Source of the DNA: SAR86 cluster bacterium
GTDB lineage: Bacteria; Pseudomonadota; Gammaproteobacteria; Pseudomonadales; Pseudohongiellaceae
DNA: 64,000 nucleotides
NCBI GenBank assembly: GCA_002746215.1
Contig: NVWI01000004.1
Location: forward strand, 158,405 to 222,404
Direction of reading: 5' to 3'
Shown: piece by piece, positions 45,943 through 47,871 of the stretch
Numbering within the stretch: the first letter of the stretch is position 1
How the letters are laid out: each line of letters opens with the position of its first letter
The notes under the pieces: generated by a model
The model's database searches: none
Seen by the model: only the letters and a program-made list of their open reading frames with translations
Told to the model about the DNA's origin: nothing
Made by a program: the position numbers and the translations under genes

Positions 45943-47871
45943 ATGAAATTTCTCAAGCTACTTCCCCTATCACTGACAACTGGGTTTTTGCTTTGCTCGC
46001 CTGCATTTTCTCAAGATGTCACACTAAGCCCCAACTATGAAACCATCAATCTTGATGAAGGCTTTCTGCCCGACCCGCAATTATTTGAACTTATTGCAGG
46101 CGGAGATGTGGATGCAAGCAACGTAGATTACAGCTGTTATGGCTATGTCTCAGAAGCCCCAGATTATCGCTTGAATTATGCGGCAGGAAGCTCAGGGCTG
46201 GGTATCTATACTAATTCAGAATCTGATACCACTTTATTAATTAACACCCCCGATGGCGAGTGGATTTGCGATGACGACAATCTCTACCTCGAAAATCTTA
46301 ATGCCGGTTATTTTTTTGAAAACCCTCTGCCCGGTGAATATAATATCTGGGTAGGAACCTATTCTGAATCTGATAGTTTTACTGAGGCCTTACTCGCTAT
46401 CACTGAATACCCTGAAAGCAGTTGGGAAACCATCCTTACCCCCACCTTTTCACAAGATACATTCAGCCTAAGCATCTTAAATAATGGCAATGAAATTCAA
46501 ACGGGTCTAGCCACCCAGGTGGCTGAAAATCTGGTTATCACAAATGCTGCATTAGTTAGCCAGGGCGATCAGTGGATCGTTGAAAACCCTCGCAATGGTG
46601 CTGCTTTGGTTGCCAGCATAAACGCCATTGATGAAGATGCTGGCCTGGCTTTATTAAACGTCAATGGTATTGATGGTACACCCGTCACCATTGCTGCTGA
46701 TTTTCCAGAGCTTGGTCGATATATTTCGCTGGCCTTACTGGATACAAACCGTCAGGGAGTATTACTTAATTTTATCGATGAAACTGACCCATTAAGCCAA
46801 GTGCAACATACTTCTCTAGCCAGTGATGGGGAGTATGGTGCCGCTCTGCTCAACAACTGCAATCAGGTTATTGGCATCAGCCAGCATTCAAGCCCGGTAC
46901 TTTCTAACCGCCTTAGGCCCGATCAGAACTTTGCTCATAGCGCCAATCTGACCAGCTTATCTAATTTTTTATCAGAAAATAATGTTGATTATATTGAAGC
47001 TTTTGATTTTTGTTTATCAGAAGCCGAGCAACTCAGCTTAGCGCAACAAAAAATTCAGGAACAAGAAGATGAACTGATTTTTCTGTTAGAAGAACAGGAA
47101 CTATTAGAAGAAGAACGCATACGCCTACAAGAACAGGCGGAAGCTTTGCTTGCAGCACAAGAAGCCTTGACTGCTGAAAACCAGGCACGCATAGATGAAC
47201 TTGCCGCCAGAGAAGCAGAGCTGGCAACGAGCCAGGCCGCTATTGAACAAGCTGAAGCTGAAGCCCTTGAACAACAAGCCCGACAAGAAGAATTAGAAGA
47301 AGAAGCCAGACAGCAAGAAGAAGCCTTGGCTGAAGCGGCGGCACAACAACTCATTGATGAGCGCAACCGACTTTACCAATGGACAGGTTTTGGTGTTGTT
47401 GTTATTGCTTTGTTTGGTTTCGTTGCAGTGCAAGTTAAGCGCCGTAAGAAAATTCAGGTAGAAGCCGAAGAAAACATCAATGAAGTTAAACAAAAAAGTG
47501 AACTTATAGAATCTGAACTGCAAAAAGCTTCCGCCGAGTTTACCGATATTGTGTTATCGGGAAGTGATGACCAAGGTGCTGAATCACGTTTAAAAATTAA
47601 CGGTAATGCACTCATTCGTTCAGATGCTGGACAAGTCATTGGTCGATCTGCGCAACATGCCGACTACGTGTTAAATCTTGAAACAGTCTCGCGTAAGCAC
47701 TTACGTATATTTATTCGTAATGAGAAAATTTACGTTGAAGATCTCAACAGCGCTAACGGCACAGAAATTAATAACAACGTACTTAATGCTGGTCAGGAAT
47801 ATGAATTAAATTCCGGGGATTCCCTGAAAATTGGCCTGGCAACCTACAGCGTCAATTTGCTGGAGACTTAA
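45943..47871 (+). CDS. Secreted-domain/TM/FHA protein: two-Cys beta-rich domain, catalytically dead trypsin-like domain, coiled coil, TM helix and cytoplasmic FHA domain
   Basis: - Signal peptide: MKFLKLLPLSLTTGFLLCSPAFS. I use the ATG at 45943 rather than the upstream non-ATG start of the ORF track.
- A domain shared with 50808-51803
- Trypsin_2-like blocks with His replaced (VITNAALV) and Ser replaced (GEYGAALL)
- A Glu/Ala/Gln coiled coil
- TM helix: GFGVVVIALFGFVAV
- C-terminal FHA: VIGRS..VSRKHLRI..NSANGTEINN. Confidence 0.75.
   Translation: MKFLKLLPLSLTTGFLLCSPAFSQDVTLSPNYETINLDEGFLPDPQLFELIAGGDVDASNVDYSCYGYVSEAPDYRLNYAAGSSGLGIYTNSESDTTLLINTPDGEWICDDDNLYLENLNAGYFFENPLPGEYNIWVGTYSESDSFTEALLAITEYPESSWETILTPTFSQDTFSLSILNNGNEIQTGLATQVAENLVITNAALVSQGDQWIVENPRNGAALVASINAIDEDAGLALLNVNGIDGTPVTIAADFPELGRYISLALLDTNRQGVLLNFIDETDPLSQVQHTSLASDGEYGAALLNNCNQVIGISQHSSPVLSNRLRPDQNFAHSANLTSLSNFLSENNVDYIEAFDFCLSEAEQLSLAQQKIQEQEDELIFLLEEQELLEEERIRLQEQAEALLAAQEALTAENQARIDELAAREAELATSQAAIEQAEAEALEQQARQEELEEEARQQEEALAEAAAQQLIDERNRLYQWTGFGVVVIALFGFVAVQVKRRKKIQVEAEENINEVKQKSELIESELQKASAEFTDIVLSGSDDQGAESRLKINGNALIRSDAGQVIGRSAQHADYVLNLETVSRKHLRIFIRNEKIYVEDLNSANGTEINNNVLNAGQEYELNSGDSLKIGLATYSVNLLET

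Follow-up and report, generated by a model that had tools for sequence, protein, structure and literature searches.

What does a bacterial envelope protein do when it carries a protease-like domain that has lost its catalytic residues and is joined, across the membrane, to a reader of phosphorylated threonine? This question is raised by an open reading frame at 45943..47871 on the forward (+) strand of the window, the 64,000-nucleotide stretch of DNA analysed here, which comprises positions 158,405 to 222,404 of contig NVWI01000004.1 (assembly GCA_002746215.1) of a SAR86 cluster bacterium. A description made from the letters without database searches, referred to below as the sequence-only reading, had named the product (hereafter the target) a pseudo-protease sensor. 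The results indicate that the target belongs to a family of HtrA-like proteins that are predicted to be catalytically dead, and that it probably acts as a periplasmic binding arm attached by its cytoplasmic FHA domain to a complex encoded by the surrounding gene cluster.

The ectodomain of the target is a homologue of HtrA-type proteases

When the target was compared alone with the Pfam profile Trypsin_2 (PF13365), residues 193-312 were matched at E 1e-5 with 26.7 bits, the gathering score being 27.6, and weak matches to HtrA1, DegS, and MarP were observed. HMMER was run exhaustively against 1.84 billion representative sequences, with the trypsin-like domains of the target and its orthologue P0024 as query. 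This search yielded a family of 93 clusters at 50% identity, 53 of them at E <= 1e-10. Nearly all of its proteins are 450-530 aa in length, with the trypsin-like domain placed directly after the signal peptide. Trypsin_2 was matched by 55 of the 69 full-length members scanned (best E 1.2e-19), and an FHA domain was found in every one of the 69. A profile built from 38 family domains matched the sequences of the solved structures of MucD, HtrA1, DegS, DegQ, and AlgW at E 2e-13 to 1e-10. A word-index homology search with the trypsin-like domain alone returned no match, not even the 79% identical P0024, reflecting a limit of the index and not the biology; the same search with the 38-sequence profile gave two irrelevant matches.

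The AlphaFold 2 (AF2) model of residues 172-372 had a mean predicted local distance difference test score (pLDDT) of 94.9 and a predicted template modelling score (pTM) of 0.89. Foldseek comparison with the PDB returned 646 chains at E <= 1e-3, headed by HtrA1, DegS, DegQ, DegP, Deg1, and MarP (E 2e-10, template modelling score 0.68-0.71), and the best 50 of the 646 chains are nearly all S1-family serine proteases, mostly of the HtrA type. As the family profile, the model, and the structural matches agree, we concluded that the similarity is due to shared ancestry with the S1C (HtrA) branch within the chymotrypsin fold and not to chance. The Trypsin_2/HtrA-like pattern that the sequence-only reading had placed at residues ~190-330 is thus confirmed, also by the comparison of a predicted structure with DegS and DegP that it had suggested.

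All three catalytic residues are replaced

The positions of the catalytic triad were fixed by hidden Markov model (HMM) alignments to MucD and HtrA1 and by direct alignment to relatives in which these motifs are intact (P0088, P0053, and three paralogues from locus L011); the motifs aligned without gaps. The position of the catalytic His (T-N-x-H-V) is occupied by A203 (46549..46551, +) in T200-N201-A202-A203-L204, that of the catalytic Asp ((T/L)-D-L-A-(L/I)-L) by G234 (46642..46644, +) in A233-G234-L-A-L-L, and that of the catalytic Ser (G-N-S-G-G-P-L) by Y298 (46834..46836, +) in G296-E297-Y298-G299-A300-A301-L. The sequence-only reading had correctly recognized an Ala at the His position, now assigned to A203 although A202 is an Ala as well, and a Tyr at the Ser position (GEYGAA in place of GNSGGP). 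Its statement that the context of the Asp (DAGLALL) is kept does not hold, however, because the catalytic Asp directly precedes L-A-L-L (TDLALL in active forms); the true position is therefore G234, and D232 lies two residues upstream. With His, Asp, and Ser all replaced, the target is predicted to be catalytically dead.

This loss is a feature of the family. Among 80 aligned family domains, the respective columns hold His in 6, Asp in 48, and Ser in 6, while 40 carry Phe, Tyr, or Trp in the Ser column. Only a single domain, a marginal match of 216 aa, has the full triad. The sequence-only reading had proposed to inspect orthologues for retention of the triad; the close orthologues P0024, L004, and L005 have the same residues as the target at the dead positions. 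Alignment to active relatives further revealed that a loop of 12-15 residues (GFPG...) present in the active forms is deleted in the dead form.

The target shares with HtrA, DegS, and DegP (S1C, PF13365) the double beta-barrel fold, three catalytic segments that align motif for motif, and the periplasmic location, and DegS resembles it further in being membrane-anchored and acting in envelope signalling. In contrast to these proteases, the target has neither His/Asp/Ser nor a PDZ domain (none detected by Pfam at E <= 10; a stalk, a transmembrane helix, and the FHA domain stand in its place), and one loop of the active forms is missing. It is anchored by a C-terminal transmembrane helix after a 120-aa stalk instead of at the N-terminus, and it has an invariant Cys pair and a cytoplasmic FHA domain. 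The target is thus a non-peptidase homologue of S1C.

Conserved features of the family: loop, cysteine pair, stalk, and FHA domain

Within the ectodomain, only C306 and C357 are invariant, and N304 is nearly so. C306 is part of the most conserved 12-residue stretch of the family, residues 299-310 (GAALLNNCNQVI; 46837..46872, +), which directly follows the lost nucleophile and reaches 3.16 bits per column, compared to 2.93 for the best FHA loop. Since the most conserved segment lies here although catalysis has been lost, the cleft region is strongly constrained, as one would expect of a pseudo-enzyme that serves in binding. C357 (47011..47013, +) is located at the base of the stalk and is the putative disulfide partner of C306. 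Both cysteines occur, beside a normal Ser, in active FHA-linked paralogues and are absent from soluble active relatives. Based on this distribution, we infer a periplasmic disulfide C306-C357 that would staple the head to the stalk.

The acidic periplasmic stalk comprises the 122 aa of residues 358-479 (47014..47379, +), with 31 Glu, 25 Ala, 20 Gln, and 19 Leu (E/A/Q/L 78%) and neither Pro nor Gly. In the family, the distance from the second Cys to the transmembrane helix has a median of 115 residues (10th-90th percentile 102-133), is essentially free of Pro and Gly, and consists to 83% of E, Q, A, K, R, L, and D. The sequence itself is not conserved, being E/A/Q-rich in the target and E/K-rich in L006 (Halioxenophilus) and L008 (Aliiglaciecola). 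The sequence-only reading had taken this region for a Glu/Ala/Gln coiled coil of ~100 aa; the composition was recognized rightly, while the coiled coil is only partly supported by the heptads, the signal of which falls from modest over the N-terminal half to weak over the C-terminal half (there only 2-3 large hydrophobic residues per 28). A coiled coil is possible and a single long helix is the alternative, making 'long helical stalk' the safer label. With a helix rise of 1.5 Å per residue, 115-122 residues would, if fully helical, extend over ~17-18 nm and hold the head at a long distance from the inner membrane. Opposite the E/A/Q-rich code of the stalk, an antisense open reading frame at 47055-47366 (-; 103 aa, Ser/Ala/Cys-rich) was regarded as a low-complexity by-product and not as a gene.

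The stalk is followed by a transmembrane helix (residues 480-498; 47380..47436, +), the sole strongly hydrophobic stretch, and by the cytoplasmic residues KRRKK. The core of the FHA domain was located by Pfam at residues 565-631 (47635..47835, +). It matches PF00498 with 62.3 bits (cutoff 20.7; E 5.8e-17), and FHA domains of solved structure in the PDB were matched at E 1.7e-5. The residues for phospho-threonine binding, G567-R568, S583-R584-K585-H586, and N605-G606 are intact in the target and invariant or nearly so in the 69 members, as would be expected of a canonical phospho-threonine-binding domain. A signal peptide, a single transmembrane helix, and Lys/Arg following this helix were found in 69/69 full-length members. 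On the basis of the signal peptide and the positive-inside rule, residues 24-479 of the target are predicted to be periplasmic and the FHA domain to be cytoplasmic, corresponding to a type-I bitopic inner-membrane protein. The order signal peptide, two-Cys domain, transmembrane helix, and C-terminal FHA domain given by the sequence-only reading was therefore retained.

Gene layout and an additional N-terminal domain

The gene starts with ATG at 45943 and ends with TAA at 47869-47871, encoding 642 aa that comprise, in order, a signal peptide, a PPC-like domain, the pseudo-S1C domain, the stalk, the transmembrane helix, and the FHA domain. Initiation at the upstream in-frame TTG at 45916 is unlikely, as the N-termini of orthologues match the Met at 45943. 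Residues 1-23 (MKFLKLLPLSLTTGFLLCSPAFS, followed by QD; 45943..46011, +) were read from the sequence as a Sec-type signal peptide, with a cleavage context of SPAFS before QD (ASLA before QD in P0024). A lipoprotein was rejected, since the Leu at -1 before Cys18 does not fit a lipobox. The S1C (HtrA/DegS-type) pseudo-protease domain occupies residues 172-357 (46456..47013, +) according to Pfam, the family HMM, AF2, and Foldseek.

Between signal peptide and S1C domain, residues 24-171 (46012..46455, +) form the beta-rich two-Cys domain, in which both Cys are conserved and which is a PPC-like beta-sandwich according to AF2, Foldseek, and its identity to repeats of a neighbouring protein. In the first homology search, most matches covered only ~37% of the target, namely this domain. 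These matches were proteins of 300-600 aa with 2-4 copies of it, many with PF04151 (PPC), and were common in metagenomes. Residues 24-171 of the target have no PF04151 match of their own, whereas many homologues carry a precomputed one. The AF2 model of the domain (pLDDT 88) matched the collagenase PPC domain 5sv5 (E 1.5e-4), the collagen-binding domain of ColG, and C-terminal beta-sandwiches of subtilases in Foldseek, the matches ranging from E 1e-4 to 1e-3 with template modelling scores of ~0.5. The domain is 52% and 54% identical (E 6e-49 and 4e-45) to the two repeats of a secreted 331-aa protein with two PPC-like domains, encoded at 50808..51803 (+), for which no match was found in Pfam or NCBIfam.

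Of the orthologues, L004 (80% identity) and L005 (69%) have the PPC-like domain, whereas it is absent from P0024 (79%) and from nearly all other listed members, in which the trypsin-like domain starts within ~50 residues of the N-terminus. In the target, the segment is bracketed by a 12-nt direct repeat (consensus TTTTC(T/A)CAAGAT), the left copy of which (TTTTCTCAAGAT; 46006..46017, +) and the right copy (TTTTCACAAGAT; 46447..46458, +) both encode FSQD. P0024 lacks exactly the bracketed segment and proceeds from the signal peptide straight to QDTFTL, which is consistent with insertion, or deletion, of the PPC segment by recombination. Because the domain is missing in P0024 and nearly all members, is flanked by the direct repeat, and resembles the repeats of the neighbour, it appears to be a recent, lineage-specific add-on and not part of the core design of the family, and it was probably copied from the neighbouring gene. 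Two PPC-like domains are also combined with an active Trypsin_2 domain in the soluble proteins P0088 and P0053.

The target gene is an integral part of a conserved cluster

The cluster extends from 37419 to 51803 and is flanked by genes for a 2-oxoacid:ferredoxin oxidoreductase on the left and by dxs-ispA on the right. Directly upstream of the target lies a gene for a cytoplasmic PP2C phosphatase of 278 aa (45057..45893, +). It is preceded by genes, assigned like the PP2C gene by family searches, for a stand-alone small FHA protein of 93 aa (43135..43416, +), a MotA/TolQ/ExbB-like membrane protein of the MotA_ExbB family (43516..44331, +), and a cytoplasmic protein of 230 aa that is disordered at the N-terminus and ends in an FHA domain (44358..45050, +). 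Directly downstream, a gene at 47874..48743 (+) encodes a TolR/ExbD-like transmembrane helix with Asp17, a short coiled coil, and a vWA domain with DxSxS. It is followed by a Hanks-type Ser/Thr kinase with a transmembrane helix, a coiled coil, and a periplasmic FGE-sulfatase domain (48820..50787, +; family search). On the opposite strand, an M4 (thermolysin-like) peptidase with a transmembrane helix and an FHA domain (38853..41201, -) and a PP2C phosphatase with a transmembrane helix and a periplasmic FTP (thermolysin propeptide) domain (41203..42951, -; family search) are encoded. The left edge is formed by a membrane-anchored 459-aa protein (37419..38798, -) in which three copies of a Cys repeat, 'FGDD..W..DGECDDPRF..DC..L', precede two PPC domains.

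The vWA gene starts 2 nt past the stop codon of the target, and its Shine-Dalgarno sequence, GGAGA, lies within the last codons of the target. Across 6 loci, the gap between family gene and vWA gene was -4 to +3 nt, and the Shine-Dalgarno sequence lay inside the 3' end of the family gene. In every locus examined, the family gene was located between a PP2C gene and a gene for a vWA protein with a TolR-like transmembrane helix. The recurring order is small FHA protein, MotA_ExbB, FHA-type protein, PP2C, family member, and vWA, then the kinase where the contig reaches that far, with M4-FHA nearby in most loci. This synteny was observed in L001-L003 (79% identity of the family protein), L005 (69%), L006 from Halioxenophilus sp. 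(37%), L007 (32%), L008/L009 from Aliiglaciecola lipolytica (27%), L010 from Pseudomonadales/Umboniibacter (31%), and L012 (32%). The gene order was held down to 24-37% identity in Halioxenophilus, Aliiglaciecola/Alteromonas, Umboniibacter/Pseudomonadales, and several metagenome contigs. A search with a narrow alignment and a restrictive pattern yielded only 3 genome loci, so that the taxonomic range is under-sampled. We concluded that the target is an integral, translationally coupled component of the cluster. In public annotation, family members are named only 'FHA domain-containing protein'.

Among the otherwise syntenic clusters (the window, L006, L008, L010, L011, L012), the periplasmic domain of the kinase is freely swapped: it is FGE-sulfatase, PEGA, Sel1 repeats, or PG_binding plus beta-helix, or it is missing. 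This ectodomain thus resembles a variable module that specifies the input to the system. Comparison with the PADLOC-DB 2.0 defence models gave no match to the target and, in the cluster, only generic matches (the kinase domain to PD-T4-6 and mad6, PP2C to PDC-M21C, and, weakly, the MotA-like protein to ZorA). An anti-phage defence system was rejected, as nothing specific was obtained. Upstream of the cluster, beyond several unrelated genes, the region 27721-31233 (+) encodes a HAMP histidine kinase, an OmpR-type response regulator, and a lytic transglycosylase (SLT_2 plus PG_binding_1).

The first ~40 residues of the vWA protein (REINIFSMSALDLFASALGAF..LPFFPNTG, including Asp17) are nearly invariant over 6 loci, while the remainder diverges and the linker varies from 0 to ~50 residues. 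The same N-terminus, REVNIFSMSALDLFASALGAFMIL..LPFFPNTG with Asp17, is near-invariant among loci at 27-80% overall identity. Judged by inspection of the motif and by the description in PMC12204202, it looks like a TolR/ExbD transpore helix. The Pfam family ExbD was not matched by the N-terminal 54 aa of the vWA protein, and beside MotA_ExbB at 43516-44331 none of the families ExbD, TolR, and MotB was found among the cluster proteins. With an N-terminal transmembrane helix and positive-inside charges, the vWA domain is predicted to be periplasmic.

Proteins with a TolR-like helix and a vWA domain (TPH-vWA) co-occur tightly with tolQ-like genes in the absence of tolR, and a 5:2 motor with these proteins as its dimeric core has been predicted (PMC12204202). 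The window fits this description with its MotA_ExbB-like and vWA genes and without ExbD, TolR, or MotB in the cluster; its vWA transmembrane helix carries an invariant Asp in the near-invariant segment ...EINIFSMSALDLFASALGAF.... In the described systems, the vWA genes mostly occur in heterologous pairs (PMC12204202), whereas the window, L001, L006, L007, L008, L010, and L012 have one vWA gene each and L011 has two. The target protein is outside the published description: the word 'kinase' does not occur in the main text of PMC12204202 and the sole match to 'FHA' is the unrelated FhaC, the text not having been searched for protease-FHA proteins. As this work leaves FHA, kinase, and PP2C unmentioned, the target family is part of a larger system that is only partly described.

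A live protease arm accompanies the predicted dead arm

The motifs of the M4-FHA protein of the window (HELTH, Glu, GGVHSNS) are intact. HExxH was kept in 6/6 loci checked, and in most of them the Glu ligand and GGVHxNS were also present. The cassette of transmembrane helix, linker, and FHA domain is homologous between the target and the M4-FHA protein (29% identity over 166 aa, E 2e-15), and the pair recurs in distant genomes. In most clusters examined, a dead S1C-FHA arm thus has as its counterpart a protease-FHA arm with intact catalytic motifs. The sequence-only reading had regarded the target as a second protease-fold ectodomain on an FHA domain and inferred a common design. The shared cassette of target and M4-FHA agrees with such a design; the M4 partner, however, is not dead, and the cluster would accordingly hold one live and one dead arm and not two receptors.

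The live M4-FHA gene adjoins that of the PP2C protein with the FTP domain, so that a propeptide-type (inhibitor or chaperone) domain would face the protease. This arrangement suggests that a protease and its inhibitor are paired in the periplasm and that, as a mirror image, a phosphatase and a reader are paired in the cytoplasm. PP2C is encoded by a separate gene (260 aa) in L002 and L003, and the gene next to it in L002 encodes the FTP protein.

At locus L011 (ENA ERZ26661859, 8001-15770), four tandem paralogues of the type S1C-linker-transmembrane helix-FHA are encoded, one of which is the family gene. Three of them have intact His/Asp/Ser and short linkers, while P0204 has only the Ser replaced, by Tyr, and has a long stalk. 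Two vWA genes with a TolR-like N-terminus lie downstream and two kinases with PG_binding plus beta-helix ectodomains upstream; no M4-FHA gene was found in the retrieved stretch. Judging from these sequences, the ancestor of the family was evidently an active HtrA-like protease that was anchored in the membrane and had the same architecture.

A proposed binding arm recruited by phospho-threonine and its alternatives

Taken together, these data lead us to favour the view that the target is a non-catalytic periplasmic binding arm which is docked by phospho-threonine to a kinase/PP2C/TolQ-like/vWA complex, a reading that we consider rather likely. The kinase would phosphorylate Thr residues of a complex component close to the membrane, and the PP2C phosphatases would erase these marks. 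The FHA domain of the target would dock onto the phospho-Thr sites, while the dead head would bind a protein or peptide partner through the old substrate cleft, flanked by the most conserved loop, without cutting it. As partners, the neighbouring vWA domain, a substrate of the live protease, or a component of the envelope close to the outer membrane come into question. The cytoplasmic phospho-Thr state could in this way be coupled to periplasmic assembly or binding, to the presentation of substrates to the live protease, or to anchoring of the vWA/TolQ-like proteins. The sequence-only reading of a pseudo-protease sensor is upheld with respect to the S1C-fold pseudo-protease, the bitopic topology, and the cytoplasmic FHA domain, but not with respect to a self-contained sensor. 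Since the FHA domain has no enzymatic output, the target is better termed a phospho-threonine-recruited adaptor arm. The peptide-binding receptor role suggested by the sequence-only reading is a candidate function, and that reading had not taken into account the TolQ/MotA-like protein and the vWA protein with its TolR-like helix, the gene of which is translationally coupled to that of the target.

Several points weigh against this view. As a single sequence, the target matches Trypsin_2 with a score short of the gathering threshold, and the disulfide C306-C357 is deduced from invariance only. Ligand, phospho-site, and interactions of the target have the status of proposals. The FHA domain has no output of its own, so that information could flow in either direction, and the motor role of the TolQ-like/vWA pair is itself a published prediction (PMC12204202).

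The target could alternatively be a regulatory subunit of a live protease, dominant-negative or substrate-presenting, that tunes periplasmic proteolysis either by joining active HtrA-type oligomers or by feeding M4-FHA. This is a minority possibility. It draws on the co-occurrence of dead S1C-FHA and motif-intact protease-FHA proteins in most clusters (M4 HExxH in 6/6 loci), on the tandem arrangement of three triad-intact S1C-FHA paralogues with the Ser-to-Tyr form in L011, on the transmembrane-FHA cassette common to target and M4-FHA, and on the 'dominant-negative' interpretation given for inactive trypsin domains (PMC7159879). However, the cluster in the window has no active S1C paralogue with which the target could mix. 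Moreover, we know of no co-oligomer of the M4 and S1C folds. The stalk of the dead head (~120 aa) is also much longer than the linkers of the active L011 paralogues, a mismatch that argues against a common oligomer.

Less probable still, and in our view unlikely, is a structural strut or ruler, in which head and stalk would span the periplasm and tether the complex of TolQ-like and vWA proteins to peptidoglycan or the outer membrane. The role of the FHA domain would then be limited to holding the target on the cytoplasmic face of this complex. The conservation of stalk length (median 115 aa, no Pro/Gly) without conservation of its sequence would fit such a role, as would the tight coupling to the vWA gene and the fact that the cluster in the window has no MotB/TolR-type peptidoglycan-binding partner; L006 has an OmpA-family gene. 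On the other hand, no peptidoglycan- or outer-membrane-binding motif was detected in the head, and conservation is strongest at the old active-site loop, suggesting binding of a specific ligand over bulk anchoring.

It is very improbable that the target is still a peptidase with non-canonical catalytic residues at shifted positions. H289 (in an 'HT' motif) is well conserved and C306 is invariant, and chymotrypsin-fold proteases with a Cys nucleophile exist, such as the viral 3C proteases. Nevertheless, the canonical positions are all non-catalytic (A203, G234, Y298), a bulky aromatic residue occupies the Ser position in half of the family, and the GFPG... loop of the active forms is deleted. 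C306 aligns to a hairpin turn eight residues past the nucleophile and co-varies with the invariant C357, as a periplasmic disulfide would. The active L011 paralogues have both a normal Ser and this Cys pair, and on the basis of this alignment a shifted triad, or C306 as nucleophile, was ruled out. Finally, a spurious, chance or compositional similarity to trypsin of an ectodomain with an unrelated fold, for which the sub-threshold Pfam score of the target (26.7 vs 27.6 bits) would speak, can be counted as already refuted by profile E-values down to 2e-13, 646 PDB chains at E <= 1e-3, and motifs that align gap-free to active relatives.

Comparison with known systems

Among functional precedents, RsgI9 and the vWA-MoxR systems come closest. 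The S1C domain of RsgI9 from Clostridium thermocellum is reportedly non-catalytic. According to PMC12203970, it is protease-like and able to bind cellulose. The RsgI9 ectodomain (PDB 7sjy; S1C-NTF2) is among the Foldseek matches of the target and likewise represents an extracytoplasmic S1C-like module for sensing or binding on a single-pass signalling protein. It differs in its Gram-positive origin, its N-in topology, an anti-sigma domain released by regulated proteolysis, and the absence of a stalk and of a kinase/phosphatase context.

In vWA-MoxR (VMAP) systems, inactive trypsin domains are fused to vWA and have been taken to bind peptides or to act as dominant negatives (Kaur et al. 2020, PMC7159879). 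As in these systems, a dead trypsin fold is tied to vWA, here as an adjacent, coupled gene, and FGE-sulfatase (FGS) domains occur in both. The domain of the target is, however, predicted to be periplasmic and part of a separate polypeptide, and the framework of the cluster is formed by a Hanks kinase together with PP2C, FHA, and TolQ-like proteins. No AAA/MoxR family was found in the 12 cluster proteins, nor was a VMAP protein; assignment to a vWA-MoxR ternary system was therefore rejected and the system kept as an analogy.

Phospho-threonine-dependent assembly via Fha1 operates in the PpkA-PppA-Fha pathway of type VI secretion systems (T6SS), in which the vWA domain is fused to the kinase PpkA and not separate as in the cluster described here. 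The TerY-P triad shares the co-encoded vWA, PP2C, and Ser/Thr kinase, but TerY is a soluble cytoplasmic vWA protein, whereas the vWA domain of the cluster is predicted to be periplasmic and has no TerY-specific family match. The DRA0331-0334 operon of D. radiodurans is described as co-encoding vWA, kinase, PP2C, and FHA (bioRxiv 10.64898/2026.01.23.701218). TerY-P, DRA0331-0334, and T6SS thus resemble the cluster in their vWA, kinase, PP2C, and FHA logic, but all differ from it in having neither a TolQ-like protein nor protease-fold ectodomains on FHA proteins.

Residues 486-634 of the target match the NCBIfam model FhaB_Rv0019c at E 4e-11, but with 43 bits against an equivalog cutoff of 125; the corresponding protein FhaB/FipA (Rv0019c) has no ectodomain and belongs to an actinobacterial cell-division context. 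A 2008 survey of prokaryotic serine proteases contains only an FHA-FHA-Tryp protein from Bacteroides, which is not the architecture of the target (PMC2605481).

Pseudo-proteases as binding modules and FHA adaptors are each already known separately. In the literature searched, we found no dead HtrA-fold head combined with a stalk of conserved length, a transmembrane helix, and an FHA domain and coupled to a TolR-like vWA protein in a TolQ-like/kinase/PP2C/FHA cluster. The target thus represents a new architecture within a largely undescribed, widespread gammaproteobacterial system.

Implications

As a tentative extension that we would give a modest chance of being correct, the pseudo-HtrA-FHA and the live M4-FHA proteins may be two phospho-Thr-docked periplasmic arms of an unrecognized trans-envelope machine. 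Its core would be a proton-driven TolQ-like pentamer with a dimer of vWA proteins contributing the TolR-like helices, gated by the Hanks kinase and the PP2C phosphatases through four FHA readers. The dead head, ~17 nm out, would capture or present a partner for force or regulated cleavage, perhaps one engaged by the metal ion-dependent adhesion site (MIDAS) of vWA. If true, this would be the first Ser/Thr-phosphorylation control of a 5:2-type motor through transmembrane FHA adaptors with protease-fold heads.

The family also provides a natural series from protease to receptor, formed by the active L011 paralogues, P0204 with its Ser lost, forms that have lost His and Ser, and the target, in which all three residues are replaced. 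It thereby offers a testable entry to the role of the predicted vWA/TolQ-like 'force transducers' and to the wiring by which Hanks kinases may convey cytoplasmic phospho-Thr signals to the periplasm.

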